DNA from: a virus
IMG/VR virus record: IMGVR_UViG_3300031418_000005
Span: 64,001 to 128,000 of that record
Length of the DNA stretch: 64,000 nucleotides
Strand: one strand, 5' to 3'
How positions within the stretch are numbered: position 1 is the first letter of the stretch; each line of letters starts with the position of its first letter. The notes beneath the pieces are model-generated. The model saw nothing but the letters and a program-made list of their open reading frames with translations, did not search any database and was not told the origin of the DNA. Shown piece after piece: positions 27,381 to 45,688 of the stretch. A program made the translations under genes and the position numbers.

Positions 27381-28442
27381 ATGTTCAGTCAAGCCGAGTT
27401 AAACCAAGTGGCCATAAAGGGTCACGTCGCGGACCCCTCCGCTATACAATTGGTTGCTGCCGTAAAAAATAATCAGCAGCGCATTCGTAACTATCTCGAA
27501 TCGGTGCAGACGCGTGTGGAATCCGGTCACCTCATCTTGAAAATCCTATCCAGTATCGGCTATGCAGCCGACCCGGACTACCTCGATATCGAATGGGCCT
27601 GCCGTCGCAAGCTTTCCGATATTGGTAATGCGCTACGTTTAATCTCGCCCGGCAACTTTGGGCAAGTGTACAACGGTGCCTTTATTGAGGGACAAGATGA
27701 GTTGATCTCACTCGTCGCTCGCCCGGTAGATCCGGATCTGCCATTTCGTGATTACACCCCCGCCGTTTACCTCTACCACGAGTATACCAATCTGAACTGG
27801 CAGTTTGGTGATAACCGTCCTCGGGGTGTGGCAATCATTGAAATTAACCTGGTCGCCTTACTCTGGCAATATGTTCTTGCAGAACAACATTACCGGAAGT
27901 CAACAGAACAGATGACCAGCGTGGTTTATGCTCAGCGTCATGTGATTACCCGCATGTTACCGAGCTATATGGACATCGCATTTCTGAATGTCCATCGGGC
28001 AGTCGCGTTTGACCAAGAGATGGAAGATGACCTGCCGATGCGCGTTATCAATGTTCCGCCGTTACACGACCTCGCGGTACGGCACGCACGGAACATTCGC
28101 AAAAGTCTTCTCGCGGGAACACCACACCCCGGTGCGGTATTAGCCCACGTACCCCAATTCTTCGAAGACCCTGCAAATCCTTCTACAGCAGTTGACCGTG
28201 TGCAGCACCATTACTCCGGTGCAACAACACAGGCCAGCTGGCACCAGAACATCATTAACTGGTACTGGGCGTTGTTCGCGTTGCAATACAACAACCCGAG
28301 CATGGACAAGTTCAAATCGAACCTGAACATCGACATCGCCCGCTTTGAGGATTCTAAGGTGCTCCAACGTCAAACCCGGTCACTGCAAACGTATCTGCAA
28401 CTGAACCTGATTAAGCCGTTGTACGCAGCCCTCGAAAATTGA
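27381..28442 (+). CDS. Conserved hypothetical/virion protein (phiKZ gp52-like position)
   Basis: Start MFSQAEL with an AAGGAG SD. Divergent from chimallin. Confidence 0.6.
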   Translation: MFSQAELNQVAIKGHVADPSAIQLVAAVKNNQQRIRNYLESVQTRVESGHLILKILSSIGYAADPDYLDIEWACRRKLSDIGNALRLISPGNFGQVYNGAFIEGQDELISLVARPVDPDLPFRDYTPAVYLYHEYTNLNWQFGDNRPRGVAIIEINLVALLWQYVLAEQHYRKSTEQMTSVVYAQRHVITRMLPSYMDIAFLNVHRAVAFDQEMEDDLPMRVINVPPLHDLAVRHARNIRKSLLAGTPHPGAVLAHVPQFFEDPANPSTAVDRVQHHYSGATTQASWHQNIINWYWALFALQYNNPSMDKFKSNLNIDIARFEDSKVLQRQTRSLQTYLQLNLIKPLYAALEN

Positions 28443-39005: not shown

Positions 39006-39081
39006 TGGCGACTCCGGCAGGACTCGAACCTGCGACGAGATAATTAACAGTCATCCGTTCTACCAACTGAACTACAGAGTC
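39006..39081 (-). tRNA. tRNA-Asn(GTT)
   Basis: Cloverleaf with loop CTGTTAA, TTCGA T-loop and encoded CCA. Confidence 0.95.
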
Positions 39082-39086
39082 ATAAA

Positions 39087-39165
39087 TCGCGAACACCGTA
39101 CTGGATTCGAACCAGTGAAAAATCCGATTATGGGTCGGGTGCTTTTTCCTCAAGCTAACGGGTTC
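39087..39165 (-). tRNA. Degenerate tRNA-Met/Ile2(CAT), possible pseudo-tRNA
   Basis: The T-arm CACTGG-TTCGAAT-CCAGT is intact and the anticodon loop is CCCATAA (C33). The acceptor stem is bulged and there is no CCA. Confidence 0.6.
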
Positions 39166-39171
39166 ATTGTA

Positions 39172-39247
39172 AGGTCAACGGTTATGGGATTCTAACCCAC
39201 CTGGTCTGTTCGCGAGCACAGTGCATCACAGTTTTGCTTACCGTCGA
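39172..39247 (-). ncRNA. Degenerate tRNA-like RNA (CGC-centred loop)
   Basis: 8-bp acceptor-like stem, short D-arm, CTGT/ACAG arm and a T-like arm GTGGG-TTAGAAT-CCCAT. Ends in ACCT. Confidence 0.5.
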
Positions 39248-39252
39248 TAAAA

Positions 39253-39373
39253 GGGAAGTCACCACCGGACTTGAACCGGTAACCGCACCACTACGCCACC
39301 GCCATTATTGCACCGCGGTGCGTGTTGGTCAGTATTGGTCGTAAGGTGTGCTCTAATCTTGAGCTAGGCGACT
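39253..39373 (-). ncRNA. tRNA-like RNA with a ~45-nt insertion in the anticodon arm
   Basis: Canonical acceptor (AGTCGCC/GGTGACT), D-arm (GCTC/GAGC) and T-arm (ACCGG-TTCAAGT-CCGGT). The anticodon loop is replaced by a long imperfect hairpin. Confidence 0.7.
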
Positions 39374-39380
39374 ATAGATT

Positions 39381-39470
39381 TGGCGGAGAATGAAGGATTC
39401 GAACCTTCGGGCAGCTTGCGCCACCACTCCCTTAGCAGGGGAGCTCTTTCGGCCACTCGGACAATTCTCC
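39381..39470 (-). tRNA. tRNA-Ser(GCT)
   Basis: Class II cloverleaf with loop CTGCTAA, G73 and CCA. Confidence 0.95.
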
Positions 39471-39475
39471 GGAAC

Positions 39476-39553
39476 TGGGGTGTATGGAGAGACTCGAACT
39501 CTCGACCACTGACGTCACAAGCCAGTATTCTAACCAGCTGAACTACATACACC
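39476..39553 (-). tRNA. tRNA-His(GTG)
   Basis: Loop TTGTGAC, G-1:C73 pair and CCA. Confidence 0.95.
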
Positions 39554-39559
39554 ACTAAA

Positions 39560-39640
39560 TGGGGGAACACCCAGGCTTCCACCCAGTCGAGTGGGGACGA
39601 ATCCATCACTCCTGTCATCACTGATGGTGACAATGTTCCC
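39560..39640 (-). ncRNA. CCA-terminated tRNA-like RNA without canonical T/D loops
   Basis: GGGAACA/TGTTCCC stem followed by CCA. Internal hairpins TGTCA/TGACA and CCACTC/GGGTGG. Confidence 0.55.
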
Positions 39641-39647
39641 ATAATGC

Positions 39648-39724
39648 TGGTTGTCTCGAGTAGACTTGAACTACCGACCTCCCGCTTATCAGGCGAGCGC
39701 TCTAACCAACTGAGCTACGAGACA
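39648..39724 (-). tRNA. tRNA-Ile(GAT)
   Basis: Loop CTGATAA, A73 and CCA. Confidence 0.95.
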
Positions 39725-39733
39725 ATTTAAAAA

Positions 39734-39810
39734 TGGCAGAACCGATGGGGCTCGAACCCACGATCTCCTCCGTGACAGGGAGGCGTCTTAACCAACTCGA
39801 CTACGGCTCT
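39734..39810 (-). tRNA. tRNA-Asp(GTC)
   Basis: Loop CTGTCAC, G73 and CCA. Confidence 0.95.
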
Positions 39811-39814
39811 ACAA

Positions 39815-39959
39815 TGGGTGACACTTCTCCGAATCCCACGGAGTTATACGGCTGCGCTTAGCGACCCTCTATCCGAGACCCTCAGGCCCAGTAGACGGTG
39901 GATGCTTTTATTGGCTGCCAGACCTCTAAGCTGCTCAAAGGCGGCGAGGGTCAGTGTCA
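39815..39959 (-). ncRNA. 145-nt CCA-terminated tRNA-like RNA
   Basis: TGACACT/AGTGTCA 7-bp acceptor followed by C-CCA. T-arm-shaped CTCCG-7nt-CGGAG and a large internal domain. Confidence 0.6.
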
Positions 39960-39964
39960 TTGTT

Positions 39965-40040
39965 TGGCGTTCCTGCGGAGAATTGAACTCCGGTTGCCTG
40001 GTTGAAAACCAGGTGTCCTGGACCACTAGACGACAGGAAC
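39965..40040 (-). tRNA. tRNA-Glu(TTC)
   Basis: Loop TTTTCAA, G73 and CCA. Confidence 0.93.
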
Positions 40041-40046
40041 AAATAT

Positions 40047-40132
40047 TGGTGGCGCGGGTTGGATTTGAACCAACGAAGGCCGAAGCCAACAGATTTACAG
40101 TCTGCCCCCTTTAACCGCTCGGGAACCTCGCC
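40047..40132 (-). tRNA. tRNA-Tyr(GTA)
   Basis: Class II, loop CTGTAAA, A73 and CCA. Confidence 0.95.
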
Positions 40133-40240
40133 AATACGTCTGAGAACTCAACTTCGAATTCGCACACGTCTTGGGTGTTTTACATATATTGGTGCAGTCT
40201 TGTAGCGAAATGGGGAAATCGCTATAAGTCGTTGATTTAT

Positions 40241-40316
40241 TGGAGCGAGTAATGAGATTCGAACTCACGACCCTCTGGTTGGGAACCAGATGCTCTACCA
40301 GCTGAGCTATACTCGC
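40241..40316 (-). tRNA. tRNA-Gly(CCC)
   Basis: Loop TTCCCAA, U73 and CCA. Confidence 0.93.
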
Positions 40317-40322
40317 ATTAAG

Positions 40323-40391
40323 TGGGGTTGATGGACTTCTTCTTCTGAGCCAGAGCAGGACTCCGGTCTTAGCGCCTCCAAGCACCAACCC
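40323..40391 (-). ncRNA. CCA-terminated small structured RNA
   Basis: GGTTGGTG/CATCAACC stem followed by CCA, ending 6 nt before tRNA-Gly. Confidence 0.45.
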
Positions 40392-40534
40392 TACTTACTT
40401 TCTTTTCGTGACGTACCGGCCGTATGAGGTACCGCGCCAACTGCAGCACACTGCTGCTCATTCACACTGGGAACTCAATCCCATCAGTTACATTCAGATT
40501 GTGGGGTGAAGGTTGCCTATGTCAGCGAGTCGGC

Positions 40535-40720
40535 TTAATGGGCCGGTGCTTGACCTTCGTCTACAATAGACGTCGCCTGGGTTGAGGACTCTCGTCCTAA
40601 AACAGGTTTATGGCGTTCAGTCCCACATCCTGATAACCAATAAGTATCGAGCTTCCAGAGCTTGAGGTCTTTCAACCAGGTACCCATACGGTACAGAAAC
40701 GCTCTGAACAACTCTTCCAT
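40535..40720 (-). CDS. Possible small protein (61 aa) within a structured region
   Basis: AGGTGA SD 6 nt before the ATG. The 3' half overlaps hairpins, so it may be non-coding. Confidence 0.3.
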   Translation of the reverse strand: MEELFRAFLYRMGTWLKDLKLWKLDTYWLSGCGTERHKPVLGRESSTQATSIVDEGQAPAH

Positions 40721-40730
40721 GTTTAGTCAC

Positions 40731-40869
40731 CTGATAAGTTCATAACGGCAGGATTGCCTACCCGCAGATAGTTCTTTGTGCAATCCGGTTAACGTGGACT
40801 TATTGGCGTGCCACGTTTCTTCACTTCATCCAACCCCAAAAGATGAAACCGTTCCAACAGGGATATCAG
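40731..40869 (-). ncRNA. Four-way-junction structured element
   Basis: CTGATA/TATCAG and AACGG/CCGTT stems enclose three perfect hairpins (TTCATC/GATGAA, AACGTGG/CCACGTT, GGATTGC/GCAATCC). Strand is assumed from context. Confidence 0.5.
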
Positions 40870-40894
40870 CCCCGTCAGTGCAATTAACACACAG

Positions 40895-41731
40895 CTATTG
40901 TTTGGCCGTCCCCATGATGCGTGGTGCATTTTTCAGGAGGATGGATGAAACGGCTTCCAGCAGATCGTCACCGGCATCGGTATTAGCGACTACCAGTGTT
41001 TTGGTGCAAGGGACTTTAACGTCACCACCGAACCACGCGCTGTTGTCAACTTTCGCGGACTTCTTCTCGTAGACCGCTTGCCCGTTAGGCAGTTTGTCGT
41101 TGACGTTCCAGTTGTTCATGTCGATGAGTTTCAGACCTGAACTCTCCTGGTTAACCGCTTCCAGAAACTTATTAGGTTTGCCCGGCGCACTTACCCACAT
41201 GAACGCGTCGTATTCACCCGTGGCCACTTTGGACAGAGAACGGATGCCGCCTTTCGCATAGGTTTCGGTTTTCGAATACTGCTTCACCAAACCTTGCAGG
41301 TATTGCCAACTGGCGTATGAGCCAGAGTCCGGTTCACCGACAGCAATCTTAATGCTGTCTTTGAGGTCAGCTTCATCACCGACCTTACCGTCTTTCTTCA
41401 CAGCCACGAAGACACACTCGTCACCCAACTGGCCAACGATGTCTACGTTCTGAGCTTCGTTCGGGTGCTGTGCGCGCCAGAACTGGAATGCGTCTGCCTG
41501 TGTAAAGCCGAGCTGCGCCGTACCGGCAGCCACTTTATCCAGGTTGTCCAGGGAACCTTTTGACGGTACCACTGTGGACTTGTTGCCGAACTCGTTCAGA
41601 GCACTGGCAAGATTAACGCCGTACGTGGCGTTGTACGTTAAACCCTGTTGACCGGTGGTAATGGTCACGTCCTGTCCTGCAAACGCGCTAAAGCTAATGG
41701 CTGCTACTAAACCGATTAGAAGCTTTCTCAT
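40895..41731 (-). CDS. TAXI-family (TRAP) periplasmic solute-binding protein
   Basis: Sec signal peptide (MRKLLIGLVAAISFSAFA) and TAXI motifs ITTGQQGLTY, SKGSLDNL, LGFTQAD and VGEPDSGS. Confidence 0.8.
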   Translation of the reverse strand: MRKLLIGLVAAISFSAFAGQDVTITTGQQGLTYNATYGVNLASALNEFGNKSTVVPSKGSLDNLDKVAAGTAQLGFTQADAFQFWRAQHPNEAQNVDIVGQLGDECVFVAVKKDGKVGDEADLKDSIKIAVGEPDSGSYASWQYLQGLVKQYSKTETYAKGGIRSLSKVATGEYDAFMWVSAPGKPNKFLEAVNQESSGLKLIDMNNWNVNDKLPNGQAVYEKKSAKVDNSAWFGGDVKVPCTKTLVVANTDAGDDLLEAVSSILLKNAPRIMGTAKQ

Positions 41732-41793
41732 GATTATACCTATTTTTAGATGAGAATTAGAGGAGGTGCGGGGGAACGACCCCGCACCATCAA

Positions 41794-41976
41794 TCAGACC
41801 TTCTTCGCCTTCGCTTTTGACTTAGCGGCAAAGGTTTTGATCACTGGCCATGCCAGGTAGGCTACTAAGCTGATTACAGCGACGTAGGCAATGAGCGTAA
41901 ACGCACGGCCTATGAAGTTGCCAAGCAGCATCAGCAGCAACGCGGCCGCGATGTATAACTTGGTTTTCAGCTTCAT
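41794..41976 (-). CDS. Small membrane protein (two hydrophobic segments)
   Basis: 60 aa with a hydrophobic core and basic termini. Confidence 0.65.
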   Translation of the reverse strand: MKLKTKLYIAAALLLMLLGNFIGRAFTLIAYVAVISLVAYLAWPVIKTFAAKSKAKAKKV

Positions 41977-41979
41977 GGC

Positions 41980-42408
41980 TTAGGCGTCGTAACGCAGACC
42001 CATCGCTTCGGCGATCTGTTTCAGCATCGCTTCTTCGGCAGGTTCGATTTCGCCATCCGCGCGCGCGATAGCAACAGCCACGTCCAGCACGTCTTCGGAC
42101 TCACGCTGGTCGCCTTTCACGTCAGCAATCTGACGAAGGGCAGCACGACGACCGATGTCGATGTCGGCTTCCAGCTGTGCAATGATCGTGGACGCGATAG
42201 CATTAAGTTCACTCTGGAAGTTAGAGAGAACCGGGTTCGCGCGCAGCACTTGTTCGATTTTCGCTTTCTCGGAAGACTCCAGCTCGCCGTCAGCATACGC
42301 AATCAGATACGCAGCATTTACCACAGCTTCGGCCAGGTCGCGTTTGTCGAACTTTTTGATTTCAGACATCGCACGAGAAGAACGTTTCTTTAAGAATCCA
42401 AACATCAC
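41980..42408 (-). CDS. terB: Tellurite-resistance TerB family protein
   Basis: Duplicated AYADGELESSE / ARADGEIEPAE motifs and an AAGGA SD. Confidence 0.85.
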   Translation of the reverse strand: MMFGFLKKRSSRAMSEIKKFDKRDLAEAVVNAAYLIAYADGELESSEKAKIEQVLRANPVLSNFQSELNAIASTIIAQLEADIDIGRRAALRQIADVKGDQRESEDVLDVAVAIARADGEIEPAEEAMLKQIAEAMGLRYDA

Positions 42409-42541
42409 TATTTTCCTTTAGGTGGGTGAGCCAGGGCTCAGGAGTGAAAGACCGTAGAGTAACAAGCACTCCATCTGGCAACACCCCCGAAAGGCTCTAC
42501 GGGTTTTCTATTTCAAAAGTAACACACCGAGCCAAGTGTGT

Positions 42542-42617
42542 TGGAGGGGCAAGCCGGACTTGAACCGACCTGATCCGAATTTGCAATTCGTCGCCTAACC
42601 ACTCGAGCCATTGCCCC
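42542..42617 (-). tRNA. tRNA-Cys(GCA)
   Basis: Loop TTGCAAA, U73 and CCA. The D-arm is slightly irregular. Confidence 0.88.
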
Positions 42618-42647
42618 AAGGTGTGGTGGGCCGAAGCCCACCGGTAT

Positions 42648-42872
42648 TCAGCCTGCGTTGAACGATTCGTGGACGACCCCTTCCGGTAAGTGCGTTGTGC
42701 CAATGTGTTTGCATCTCAGGATTACTCCGTCTTCGTTGCGAAACACATCAGTCCAGCGCCCATGGTTGGGCTTCGTTGCGCGCGCAGCTTGCTCCGTAGG
42801 AGCAGCAACGACTATGGAATCAAACTCGTCGTAACCGACATCGTCTTCACGTTCTAGCAAATACAAGTTCAT
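42648..42872 (-). CDS. Small conserved phage protein
   Basis: MNLYLL...GYDEFDSIVVAAPTE...SFNAG, a common small phage protein pattern. GGAG SD. Confidence 0.65.
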   Translation of the reverse strand: MNLYLLEREDDVGYDEFDSIVVAAPTEQAARATKPNHGRWTDVFRNEDGVILRCKHIGTTHLPEGVVHESFNAG

Positions 42873-42935
42873 GAGAATCTCCAGCGAATGGTCAATTGTC
42901 CTTTCGTGGTTTCTCACATTCTTGCTGGCTAAATT

Positions 42936-43011
42936 TGGCAGGGGAGACAGGACTCGAACCTGCAACATTCGGTTTTGGAGACCGACGCTCTACCAGTTGA
43001 ACTACTCCCCC
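42936..43011 (-). tRNA. tRNA-Trp(CCA)
   Basis: Loop CTCCAAA, G73 and CCA. Confidence 0.95.
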
Positions 43012-43022
43012 AGAATTCTTCA

Positions 43023-43117
43023 CTCAGGTGCCATGCGGATAGGTGGCGATTTCTTGCGTTGGCCAAACAGCGTCAACACCGTATCCCGCAGCCCTAGCTG
43101 TTTTGGTTCTTCCTGAG
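43023..43117. ncRNA. Pseudoknot-capable structured element
   Basis: CTCAGG/CCTGAG closing stem, internal GGATA/TATCC and GGTG/CACC stems, and AAACAGC/GCTGTTT cross-pairing. Confidence 0.4.
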
Positions 43118-43119
43118 GT

Positions 43120-43623
43120 TTATTTTGTTTTTGAGACATGACTAATCTCCCGAATCTCACCGCCAGTGTTCACATCGAACCGTGCCGCAATACTCACTGC
43201 GTCAGCAGCGGATGCACCTGCGGCCATCGCACCGATGGCGAACTCAGAACCACTACCCACCGCAATGGGTGCTGTGACTTTGGTTAGCCATGGCATCTCG
43301 TCGTTCTCGTATTGACCACCGGCGTAAACGTTACCACCCTCGGTAACGACCAGGTAGCTAATCACAATCCCTTTCGGGAACCGTGTGCTGCCGGTCAAGC
43401 CCTGGTAACCCTTCATGCAACTGGACAAGGCTTCACGCAGTGCGTTGTTCCCTTGCAGGCATCCGGCTACCCCGAACGATATCGCTCGCTCTCCGTTCAC
43501 CACCCAGGACTCACCTGGTTGCGGTGTAAAGATTTTCACAGCGTGCATCGACAGGCGGATATCGCCTTGGGTCGTTTGGGAATCACCCGCGAGGGTTTTC
43601 CCGTCGTAGGCGATTGTGGTCAT
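43120..43623 (-). CDS. HslV/proteasome-beta-like Ntn peptidase
   Basis: N-terminal MTTIAYDG...AGDSQ, K33-like VKI, GVAG, AVGSGS and DVNTGG motifs. Confidence 0.85.
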   Translation of the reverse strand: MTTIAYDGKTLAGDSQTTQGDIRLSMHAVKIFTPQPGESWVVNGERAISFGVAGCLQGNNALREALSSCMKGYQGLTGSTRFPKGIVISYLVVTEGGNVYAGGQYENDEMPWLTKVTAPIAVGSGSEFAIGAMAAGASAADAVSIAARFDVNTGGEIREISHVSKTK

Positions 43624-43658
43624 CGCAGTTCTCCGTGGGTTGTTTAACATACCCAACG

Positions 43659-44255
43659 GCTAACTTGTAAATTTTATTCAGCCAGGCATCGACGCTTCAC
43701 AGCGAGAACACCCACCCCTCTCGTCTTCCCGAGCCGCCAAGATTGGATCACCTCCCTCGGGAGTAACCCCAAGTCTACGGTTCTACACGCAGACCCCTAT
43801 CGACGCAACGCCGAATTCGGATTGGCCGCACCCCAGAGCAGGAACAACGAGGACTACCGGAGGTAAGTTCAACGGCGTATACTCGAAGTCCCGCATCTGG
43901 AGCTGCCACGGTACCCGGCACATGTGTGGCGGTGAAAGCGCCCTGCACTACGGCCCCTGAGCCGAATGCAAAAGCCAGATACCTGAATGGGTGGGTGGTT
44001 CAAAGTTTCCCCGCTCGGAACCACCCGTTCGAAGTGCCGCGAAACACTTTGACCGAACATAATAAACAAAACGACAGTGTTAGGCTGAGCGATTTGCTTT
44101 GTCGAGGGCTTCCACGGTCGGAAATTCTCGAAAAAGCACCCTGGCTGGTGAAGACCAGGGTGGAGCTCTGCACATGCAGACAAGACAGCTTCTCAGTGCA
44201 GTGACGCTTGAGAATCATTTCGCATATAACTACTGGCTGACGTAATCGAGTTGGC
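43659..44255 (+). ncRNA. Candidate large (~600 nt) ornate structured ncRNA
   Basis: The two ends pair, and more than 10 internal helices are visible. G-U pairs favour the plus strand. No credible ORF. Confidence 0.6.
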
Positions 44256-44262
44256 AGGGGAG

Positions 44263-44293
44263 AAAAAAATAGCCCCGAGGTTTCCCAGGGGGC
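44263..44293 (-). terminator. Terminator-like hairpin
   Basis: GCCCCCTGG-GAAA-CCTCGGGGC followed by T7 on the minus strand. Confidence 0.6.
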
Positions 44294-44501
44294 GGAGCCA
44301 ACACACAGCAGTCCCTACGACTCTCGGGTCGCTTGGGTTCCCCATCTTACCAGCCTGTAAGAATTCGTTGTTGAAAAATCGCCACTCCCATTCACGCTAC
44401 GTGGAGCTGAGACTCATTCTCGGTCGGGAGTGGCTTTCCCGTAATGCCATCGGGGTCAACTTGTCACACTACTGGGTAGCCTTGTAAAAAATAATTGCTC
44501 C
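44294..44501 (+). ncRNA. Candidate ~200-nt structured RNA
   Basis: GGAGC/GCTCC closure. GCCACTCCC/GGGAGTGGC encloses two hairpins, and further hairpins are present. Confidence 0.45.
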
Positions 44502-44520
44502 CGGTTCACCCCTCGCTCCC

Positions 44521-44730
44521 GATCACGATCTCGTAATAAGGATCACGCGCGCTCGCACACGCGTTTTAAATATATTTATTTATATCTAAAGATATTTATA
44601 TATTTTAATATATTTAATAATATCTAAAGATATTAATATAATAATTATATTTATATATATTTAAAAGATCCTGGAGGATACGGGTGTGCGCGTACGCGCG
44701 TATAATGAAAGCGATCCGCCCAAGATCAAA
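44521..44730. other. Candidate replication origin (symmetric AT-rich core)
   Basis: 103 bp (44564-44666) with only 4 G/C, a direct repeat of ATATCTAAAGATATT and inverted ends. Flanked by CG-alternating tracts and six GATC sites. Confidence 0.55.
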
Positions 44731-45103
44731 ACCTGAAAACCAGTGAGTGACGTAAGTCACTAATTTAAAAAGGAATTTTTAAATAATCCCGGCCTTAGGG
44801 GCCGGATAGGCAGTAAGTCAGGAAAAGCACTCGAAGGTAATTCGCAGAGATGCGAATTACAAATCGATCCACTCTCCCCTTCCCCTCCAACGCGAAGCGT
44901 ACATGATATTTTGATCGTCGCGGCGGTCGGCTCGCCGGGTCGGGGATGTCGCTCAGACGTCCTGTACGGCACGACAAGGCCATAAATGGGGGTAAGACAC
45001 CCAAACGTACCGGGTCAAGATAAATGCCCTCAGAGAGCTTTTTAGACCCCTTATCGCCGCTGGTTAAAAAGTGTACAAAGTCTGTTCAAAAAGTGAGCAG
45101 GGC

Positions 45104-45134
45104 AAAAAAATAAACGGGTACCCGAAGGTACCCG
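45104..45134 (-). terminator. Intrinsic terminator
   Basis: CGGGTACC-TTCG-GGTACCCG followed by a T-tract. Confidence 0.8.
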
Positions 45135-45139
45135 ATTGG

Positions 45140-45688
45140 TTAAAATTTGTACAGCAGATTGCCTAATTTGAAACCTGCTTGTTCGAGACCGGCGATGTCG
45201 TCATCGGTAAAATTACCCATCATGAACAGTACCGGCGACAGCCCCGGTGTTAAACTATTGCGGTGACGGATAACCTCTTCGCCAGCGCTACCGATAAACT
45301 GCATGATTACGTCGTCTGTAACGCTCTCTGGGATGTCGATAGCTACCCCGATATACGTTACCCCTGCTACTTCCTCTGGACGTCCTACAGACGCGCACAG
45401 GAGGTATTTGTCCAAGGGAACTTCTTTACTCAACGTTTCGCGAAGTCCCAACCCGGTTTCTTCATTGAGGTGATGTTTCACGTAGACGTAATGGCGGTCT
45501 TCTACCGGTGCCACCACGAAGATGAAGTAGGGCTTGTCGTCTTTGTACCAGACAACATACTGGTTGTCGGTACGATCGGTACGCACCAAGTCACGCAGCT
45601 GACTTGCGATGTCTTCCTGCCAGTTTTCCGCCATCGCAATGTTTGGCGTGGAAGTCAGGGTGAAAATGTCTTTGTGCAATTGAAACAT
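45140..45688 (-). CDS. Hypothetical protein
   Basis: 182 aa with an AAGGA SD. Confidence 0.6.
   Translation of the reverse strand: MFQLHKDIFTLTSTPNIAMAENWQEDIASQLRDLVRTDRTDNQYVVWYKDDKPYFIFVVAPVEDRHYVYVKHHLNEETGLGLRETLSKEVPLDKYLLCASVGRPEEVAGVTYIGVAIDIPESVTDDVIMQFIGSAGEEVIRHRNSLTPGLSPVLFMMGNFTDDDIAGLEQAGFKLGNLLYKF

Follow-up and report, generated by a model that had tools for sequence, protein, structure and literature searches.

Large RNAs with a conserved, elaborate fold are rare, and, to our knowledge, nearly every one that is understood (the ribosome, RNase P, the introns, the GOLLD and ROOL cages) revealed new biochemistry. The tRNA gene cluster of phage T4 embeds the stable RNAs species 1 and 2, of ~120-140 nucleotides (nt), and also contains the homing endonuclease SegB. 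In the available text of a recent preprint (bioRxiv 10.1101/2024.12.08.627333), GOLLD and ROOL are described as large, ornate, phage-borne RNAs situated beside tRNA islands, with their function unknown; GOLLD is given a conserved 3' region and a variable 5' region, and its binding to ribosomes in pull-downs is cited. The locus considered here lies in a stretch of 64,000 nt (the window, positions 64,001 to 128,000 of the IMG/VR virus record IMGVR_UViG_3300031418_000005), whose phage appears from sequence comparison to be SPN3US-like and nearest to Erwinia phage phiEaH2. Positions 43667-44245 of the window quite probably hold a single-copy minus-strand gene for a structured non-coding RNA of ~555-580 nt, the first gene of the phage RNA island. 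A first-pass annotation of this DNA had already proposed a large ornate non-coding RNA of ~0.6 kilobases (kb) beside the phage tRNA cluster, and that proposal is upheld by strong covariation and by a fold better than that of shuffled sequences.

With GOLLD, as far as it is covered by the available description, the jumbo-phage RNA shares the layout of a conserved 3' and a variable 5' part (a resemblance, not homology), the location in a phage next to tRNA genes (here 11 downstream tRNAs on the same strand), and a possible tie to the ribosome, GOLLD being bound to ribosomes in pull-downs and the jumbo-phage RNA having, on sequence alone, a strand complementary to 16S ribosomal RNA (rRNA). However, GOLLD exceeds 0.8 kb, against about 0.47-0.62 kb for the jumbo-phage RNA, whose carriers are jumbo phages of Enterobacterales. 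ROOL is similar in its size of about 0.6 kb, its complex multi-helix fold, its occurrence in phages and prophages near tRNA islands and, within the same partial account, its lack of a known protein partner or function, but its conserved motifs are unrelated, and the jumbo-phage RNA is narrowly confined to one phage clade. The T4 non-tRNA stable RNAs likewise sit in a phage tRNA array, and a homing-endonuclease gene is found in the RNA island of T4 as in the HNH insertion of locus L020 described below, whereas the jumbo-phage RNA is four to five times larger than the T4 RNAs and has a long-range architecture.

The RNA matches no catalogued family. Within it, the 4,227 models of Rfam 15 gave no match at gathering score or at E values up to 10, with inputs of 64, 2.2 and 0.65 kb, and the best matches were at chance level (E 8.7 and 9.8). 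For the GOLLD model (RF01998), the whole window searched at gathering score had no match, and neither did 43000-45200 and 43655-44300 when E values up to 10 were allowed; the ROOL model (RF03087) had no match in the window or the RNA region. Neither RNase P nor tmRNA was detected by the Rfam models and ARAGORN over the window; no group I or group II intron model matched, and the RNA is flanked by a terminator and the beginning of an HslV-like gene instead of exons. Riboswitch, T-box and ribosomal-protein leader models had no matches inside the RNA, the gene adjacent to which varies by lineage. The lack of Rfam matches thus means that the RNA is not a member of the GOLLD, ROOL, OLE, RNase P, tmRNA or intron families; by eye, the first-pass annotation had likewise been unable to match it to ROOL, GOLLD, tmRNA, RNase P or a self-splicing intron. 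A literature search found no published description of the RNA; fragments of it may sit among the 8,495 IMG/VR candidate RNAs of PMC10690425, a source available here in part. Against Rfam and the searchable literature, the suggestion of a possible new large-RNA class therefore holds.

A sensitive blastn search with 43600-44500 matched 55 phage records, all of them Enterobacterales jumbo phages, with Salmonella (28), Erwinia (23), Escherichia (2), Enterobacteria (1) and Proteus (1) as the hosts. The nearest relatives, the Erwinia phages phiEaH2 and Stratton, are 87% identical across the whole query, and the remaining ones gave partial matches alone, at 72-78% identity. In the ten annotated loci examined, the RNA stretch is either blank or covered by short 'hypothetical' open reading frames (ORFs) that differ between the records. 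The region of the invariant hairpin CUCG-GAAAGA-CGAG served as the search motif for homologues; its scan of IMG/VR yielded 11 contigs, three new lineages among them, and a relaxed metagenome scan with a 17-base motif gave at least 119 loci, the true homologues among the matches listed being L104, L110 and L121 (nhmmer E at or below 1e-20). Loci L076, L079 and L093, with nhmmer E of 0.004-0.005, were counted as chance together with the remaining metagenome loci. The whole sample thus comprises about nine lineages of one phage clade, namely Erskinevirus, Seoulvirus, Machinavirus and relatives. A covariance model, R1, built from 16 sequences (alignment A5) for the last 100 nt of the RNA, finds exactly one copy each in the window's own genome of 246,337 bases and in three further complete jumbo-phage contigs. 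Genes for tRNAs lie downstream of the RNA on its strand in the window and in 5/5 further loci with enough flank (L011, L012, L021, L104 and L121). From this synteny and the range of the copies it follows that, within a single clade, the RNA family marks where the tRNA island begins. Pseudomonas phage EL has no R1 match, the unannotated gap of 650 nt (L141:3351-4000) upstream of its HslV homologue included.

In the alignment of homologues, invariant runs alternate with segments that vary in sequence and length yet are still complementary. The minus-sense consensus fold of 12 sequences (RNAalifold) has 79 pairs in 13 helices, with standard pairs in 94.3% of the cells against 85.7 +/- 0.7 in column shuffles, and with double-sided changes in 31 of the 79 pairs against 20.4 +/- 2.3; the observed value of pairing or of double change was reached in 0/500 shuffles, a significance that is inflated by the relatedness of the sequences and in this respect weighs against the proposed RNA. 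The slid controls, in which the partners were moved by 1-3 columns, are fairer and also far below the observed values, with 6-10 doubly changed pairs and 37.5-50.1% of cells paired. In the Erskinevirus and Seoulvirus subgroup (six sequences, alignment A7), 144 pairs, 38 of them compensatory, were predicted with a consensus energy of -155 kcal/mol. MAFFT misaligns some of the variable hairpins. The 3' half is highly conserved, with its long-range helices, invariant loops, Shine-Dalgarno-like strand and terminal GNRA hairpin, and the last 100 nt are common to the nine lineages, whereas the main groups differ too much in their 5' halves to be aligned. The gene matches its relatives at E 1e-100 to 1e-136 (nhmmer).

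As to coding potential, the RNA stretch appears from sequence comparison to be non-coding. Five ORFs of 48-104 amino acids lie inside it, and none is kept in the 5 other A7 sequences, where they have 1-5 in-frame stops, a length not divisible by three or a combination of the two; a partial exception is the 104-amino-acid frame in phiEaH2, which is stop-free but also of a length not divisible by three. The first-pass statement that there is no credible ORF is in accordance with this lack of conservation.

The RNA is, on comparative grounds, read from the minus strand, which is also the strand of the tRNAs and the HslV-like gene. For the same alignment of 12 sequences, the consensus energy is -76.88 kcal/mol on the minus and -45.23 kcal/mol on the plus strand, and for ten sequences it is -85.92 vs -47.13 kcal/mol. 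In the 50 pairs predicted on both strands, the minus sense has 18 G-U and 6 A-C cells and the plus sense the reverse, so that the plus strand would carry three times more mismatches; the 38 G-U cells of the terminal hairpin alone (helix 13) would become A-C mismatches there. The terminal loop is a GNRA tetraloop (GUGA, GAGA, GCGA or GGGA) in 16/16 sequences and would be read as UCNC on the plus strand, the minus strand has the lower minimum free energy in 12/12 homologues, and 5/5 terminator-like sites in 43400-44800 are on the minus strand, with none on the plus strand. The first-pass annotation had instead placed a ~600-nt RNA on the plus strand, antisense to the tRNA island and closed by pairing of its ends. 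In its favour, the plus strand of the window's 597-nt stretch folds well (-209.9 kcal/mol, z -3.48, with 0/100 dinucleotide shuffles as good), and the shuffle z-scores do not tell the strands apart, the minus strand giving -234.2 kcal/mol and z -3.35, again with 0/100 shuffles as good. Moreover, some helices of the window, such as TCGAGGG/TTCTCGA and the two closing helices, have G-T pairs in the plus reading, and the helix at 44096-44137 has two minus-sense A-C mismatches that are G-U on the plus strand and probably misled the earlier reader. The wobble argument for the plus strand thus stands for a few helices of the window sequence and is reversed across the family. Neither of the closing helices is conserved: cells of TCAGCCAG/CTGGCTGA are Watson-Crick in 18/96 cases across 12 homologues, its left arm is the 3' strand of the terminal hairpin, and even in phiEaH2, with its 87% identity, unrelated sequence replaces the right-hand arms of both. 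All the comparative evidence assigns the RNA to the minus strand, in the orientation of the tRNAs, and an antisense RNA closed by its ends seems a very remote prospect.

The elements of the minus-strand RNA and its border are as follows.

43667..44245, minus strand: large structured RNA gene, 579 nt as aligned, a block kept in 12 homologues of 467-625 nt
43680..43717, minus strand: terminal hairpin (helix 13), 13-14 base pairs (bp), with a GNRA tetraloop (GUGA in the window)
43720..43733, minus strand: invariant hairpin CUCG-GAAAGA-CGAG (helix 12), within ~26 nearly invariant nt, identical in 16/16 sequences
43745..43758, minus strand: Shine-Dalgarno-like stretch GAGGGAGGUGAUCC, a complement of the 3'-terminal 13 nt of E. 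coli 16S rRNA
43772..43795, minus strand: hairpin GGUCUGCG / CGUAGACU (helix 10) with the conserved 8-nt loop UGUAGAAC
43800..43814, minus strand: hairpin UCGGCG-UUG-CGUCGA (helix 9), 100% of cells paired, G-U replaced by G-C in the Huxley lineage
43823..43911, minus strand: central domain, helices 4-7, with 43895-43908 paired to 43823-43838
43993..44025, minus strand: lineage-specific hairpin GGUGGUUC.../...GAACCACC, found in the forms of Erskinevirus and Seoulvirus and lacking in Machinavirus-like ones
44096..44137, minus strand: 5' domain hairpin GCUUUUUCGAGA...UCGACAAAGC of 14-16 bp (helix 3), 15 pairs, 5 doubly changed, 95.6% paired
44138..44160, minus strand: 5' domain hairpin CCCUGG...CCAGGG, covarying within A7
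44263..44290, minus strand: intrinsic-terminator-like hairpin (44290-44273) and T-run, directly upstream of the RNA gene

Support is best for the terminal hairpin, the hairpins at 43772-43795 and 43800-43814, the long central helix with the hairpin that it encloses, and the two 5' hairpins at 44096-44137 and 44138-44160. In the terminal hairpin, 8 of the 13 pairs are changed on both sides and 98.1% of the cells are paired, while in helix 10, 5/7 pairs are changed on both sides and the mismatches are A-C in the plus and G-U in the minus reading. The invariant hairpin at 43720..43733 never varies and is therefore beyond the reach of a covariation test. In the central domain, a hairpin at 43856-43876 with the invariant loop UUGAACUUACCUC is enclosed by the long central helix, where CUCCAG/CUGGGG of the window is replaced by CUUGGG/CCCAAG in the distant L013 lineage through independent double changes. 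A candidate long-range helix of CCGU (43908-43911) with GCGG (43734-43737) is almost invariant and so unproven, and the partner of UUGGCGG differs between the folds, being CCGU with 12 sequences and CGUCA with six. Loop pseudoknots (GUGUAG with CUAACAC; GAACUUAC with GUAUGUUC or UUCAGGU) were also considered and set aside as unproven, their partners being almost invariant and the pairing not clearly kept by Huxley and L011.

The strings quoted in the first-pass annotation are all present where it put them, and its local hairpins are for the most part correct, since either strand shows a hairpin. Thus, TCGAGGG/TTCTCGA is part of the conserved 14-16 bp hairpin at 44096-44137, CACCCTGG/CCAGGGTG at 44138-44160 and TCTGC/GCAGA at 44166-44181 are conserved, ACGCCG belongs to the conserved hairpin at 43800-43814, and GGGTGGTTC/GAACCACCC at 43993-44025 is real and limited to the Erskinevirus and Seoulvirus lineages. 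Other proposed helices, CGAGA/TCTCG, TTCCCGAG/CTCGGGAG, ATCTGG/CCAGAT and GCTGCCAC/GTGGCGGT, are not kept across the family, their bases belonging to other covarying helices.

The RNA is held by a gap of ~1.5 kb without credible genes, bounded by the ATG of the HslV-like gene at 43623, whose phiEaH2 homologue is annotated as 'peptidase HslV family', and by a minus-strand ORF at 45140-45688. The 11 tRNAs of the window (ARAGORN and Rfam) are all on the minus strand, at 39006-43011, and the order along this strand is an AT-rich block, a short terminated unit, the RNA, 0-2 small genes, the HslV-like gene, tRNA-Trp and the other tRNAs. The gene next to the RNA is HslV-like in the window, phiEaH2 and SPN3US; small ORFs precede the HslV-like gene in SPAsTU, where an extra ORF of 129 amino acids has no Pfam match (L003:2571-2960), and in pEa_SNUABM_29, pEa_SNUABM_9 and Huxley, with 1-2 small ORFs in between. 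The 3' end of the RNA is directly past the terminal hairpin, at about 43667-43680, and shortly ahead of the next gene. The 5' end is uncertain, at either the conserved TTAC at 44245, with which the conserved part begins (alignments A4 and A7), or the G of the next conserved motif, TATG, at 44223, which is also seen near the 5' border in Machinavirus-like and Huxley forms. In the available part of PMC5312081, the late promoter of the non-virion polymerase of phiKZ is TATG, with the start site at G; by analogy, the conserved TATG may fit this rule, but it is a mere 4-mer. In a promoter scan around the RNA, sigma-70-like matches were confined to the AT-rich block and to plus-strand positions 43644-43673. 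The terminator-like hairpin at 44273-44290, which is likewise placed in SPN3US, SPAsTU and pEa_SNUABM_29, closes the preceding minus-strand unit. The terminator scan also flags an internal hairpin, CACCCUGG...CCAGGGUG followed by CUUUUUCGAG, at 44137-44162 on the minus strand, which is probably no terminator in the modelled fold, because its U-rich tail forms the 5' arm of the helix that comes next in the consensus; it could yield a shorter species of ~60-85 nt from the 5' end.

Within the RNA, GAGGUGRUC(C) occurs in every homologue, about 70-80 nt from the 3' end. With the 16S tail taken as the final 13 nt of the annotated E. coli rrsH (L146), this Shine-Dalgarno-like site is the best duplex in 15/15 sequences, at the homologous position, with a free energy (dG) of -15.1 to -21.3 kcal/mol; an equal or better duplex was reached in 0-8/200 shuffles for 14 sequences and in 30/200 for L013. 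In the whole genome (492,674 nt over both strands), 40 sites are at or below -15, and the site of the RNA is the second strongest. The two other strongest partners of the 16S tail are extended Shine-Dalgarno sequences, GGAGGUGAUCG, just before start codons (C1 ~189193 and 129212, minus strand, outside the window), and very long Shine-Dalgarno sequences are used by the phage for some genes. It is rather unlikely, though worth entertaining, that the RNA is linked to translation in such a way that the conserved 16S complement of 9-12 nt could dock it on 30S subunits. The specific form of this idea, a phage-made ribosome-docking RNA with a 'super Shine-Dalgarno' strand on the anti-Shine-Dalgarno tail of the host 16S rRNA, gated by a CUCC/GGGG switch and tethering the RNA to the 30S subunit, is quite doubtful.

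A split allele of the gene was found in L012, L020 and L104, in which an insertion of ~600 nt lies just upstream of the Shine-Dalgarno-like strand (L020:12379-12973). Its ORF of 169 amino acids matches Pfam HNH_3 at 24.6 bits against a cut-off of 24.8 (E 2e-5) and also a homing-endonuclease zinc loop (E 5e-4). The ORF is preceded by an element of ~65 nt that ends in a hairpin and eight U and reaches 31 bits, below the gathering score of 35.8, with Rfam int-alpA (RF02996), and that lies in the L020 cassette, not in the RNA proper; a 14.5-bit match of the same model over the 3' domain (E 4) was treated as chance. A search of the HNH insertion of L020 and its surroundings gave no match to a group I or group II intron model. 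Neither the near-identical L021 nor the related L013 has the insertion; it is recent, and it is no proof that the split RNA works. Homing endonucleases usually target conserved, important sequence, and the insertion therefore fits a functional RNA gene.

The favoured reading of the locus as a discrete gene would have the RNA released as a discrete, stable species that may act in trans, by analogy with GOLLD and ROOL by phage tRNA islands, and might, at a rather long guess, act on translation through its 16S-complementary strand. A gene is preferred to a leader because the next gene differs between lineages and the terminal hairpin is followed by a T-run in 7/16 sequences (L007, L011, L012, L013, L014, L020 and L021). 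Several observations pull the other way. The unpaired probability predicted for the Shine-Dalgarno-like strand, 0.17-0.46 against 0.32-0.39 RNA-wide, is not above average, which counts against a constitutively exposed docking site; the upstream CUCC (43759-43763) can pair with the GGAG core and sequester the strand, with a compensating UCCC/GGGG variant of this pairing in L011; an invariant UUG 10-14 nt downstream may make the site an ordinary ribosome-binding site; and the T-run is poor in the window and SPN3US, so that read-through into the HslV-like gene is likely there and a leader role conceivable. The main rival would make the RNA a very large 5' leader or attenuator that acts in cis on the HslV-tRNA operon; a signal sensed by the upstream domains would set whether the terminal hairpin terminates transcription or occludes a ribosome-binding site. 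Such a leader would suit an RNA directly upstream of the next genes on the same strand, a 3' end that resembles an expression platform, where the trio GGGG / CUCC / GGAGG could switch and a terminator-like hairpin follows, and the read-through suggested by the weak T-run. However, it is made unlikely by the inconstant gene right after the RNA (HslV-like, the 129-amino-acid ORF or other small ORFs), by a size and invariant loops that far exceed those of known leaders, and by the lack of any riboswitch or T-box model match. Besides, coupled attenuation is unlikely if the phage DNA sits in a ribosome-excluding nucleus, and the genes of related phages are transcribed by RNA polymerases that these phages encode themselves (according to the part of PMC5312081 available).

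The invariant UUG also permits a dual-function RNA or a small gene, with the Shine-Dalgarno-like site driving a short ORF. In the window, the UUG frame has 20 codons (43679-43741 including the stop codon), GGAGGUGAUCC resembles the two strongest genuine-looking ribosome-binding sites of the genome, and the UUG is invariant in 16/16 sequences of A5, with the same 20-codon frame ending in an invariant GCUGA in 10/16. But a 1-nt insertion puts SPN3US and L110 out of frame, L011 has a further shift, the stop is read through in L003, and the frame is cut to 13 codons in 4 sequences; its first 9 codons are invariant at all three positions, without synonymous drift, and the remaining ones undergo paired, helix-preserving substitutions by which the peptide is radically altered, the GGAGG-to-UUG spacing being 10-14 nt. 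The frame is not kept as a peptide, ribosome loading at the site being possible, and a coding role is highly improbable. A ribozyme, acting for instance in the processing of the transcript of the tRNA island, or an element that splices or cleaves itself, might show the same invariant loops and junctions, long-range helices and position at the head of a tRNA array, but no RNase P, group I or II intron or small ribozyme model matches at E up to 10 and no interrupted host gene is present, which leaves catalysis a remote alternative. The most far-fetched of the alternatives is an element acting in DNA, such as a replication origin, packaging site or protein-binding array; the RNA stretch does adjoin a conserved AT-rich block with GC-rich inverted repeats (about 44545-44700), and several genome records start or end near the locus, but hairpins acting in DNA would lack the strand-asymmetric G-U pairs, the GNRA loops and the covarying long-range helices between strands 80-170 nt apart.

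Two further conserved parts of the locus lie beyond the RNA. Directly upstream of it, a second conserved unit on the minus strand (44246-44515), which ends in the hairpin 44273-44290, has an invariant TTTTTTAC at 44484-44491 followed by ~200 nt with conserved GUGUG, CGAUG and ACUGCUGUGUG blocks. It could be a separate small RNA; its covariation term of +2 with 5 sequences gives no support. Genome-wide, TTTTTTAC has 15 copies against 6.5 expected, 13/15 of them on the minus strand (in the window at 27469, 37094, 44491 and 62640), often right after GC-rich hairpins and 40-150 nt ahead of an ORF start. No claim of a phage promoter is made for it, many of the copies directly following GC hairpins and being maybe a plain terminator tail; it may unite a terminator tail with a promoter element. 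Further upstream, 44545-44700 contains ~100 bp of almost pure A/T flanked by GC-rich alternating inverted repeats; the position of this block is kept in all fetched relatives, sigma-70-like matches occur in it on both strands, and several GenBank records and two IMG/VR contigs start or stop within 1-2 kb of it. The early promoters of phiKZ-like phages are extended AT-rich elements according to the available part of PMC5312081, and by this analogy an early-promoter element may be an alternative reading of the block.

New here are the 16S-complementary strand, the HNH-split allele and the rejection of the closing helices. The RNA would explain a ~0.6-kb annotation 'gap' that is blank or filled by spurious small ORFs in dozens of jumbo-phage genomes, and would add another large ornate RNA, in phage-host pairs that are well studied and can be cultured (Salmonella with SPN3US; Erwinia with phiEaH2, Huxley and others), in which genetics, antisense knock-down, RNA sequencing and cryo-electron microscopy are feasible. 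Its fixed place, single copy, near-invariant 3' domain, 16S-complementary strand and endonuclease-split allele may serve as handles on the role of phage RNAs by tRNA genes. If the docking proposal were true, an RNA made together with the phage tRNA set could sequester host ribosomes, bias them toward phage messages or deliver tRNAs, and such a viral takeover of translation by RNA alone would be new.

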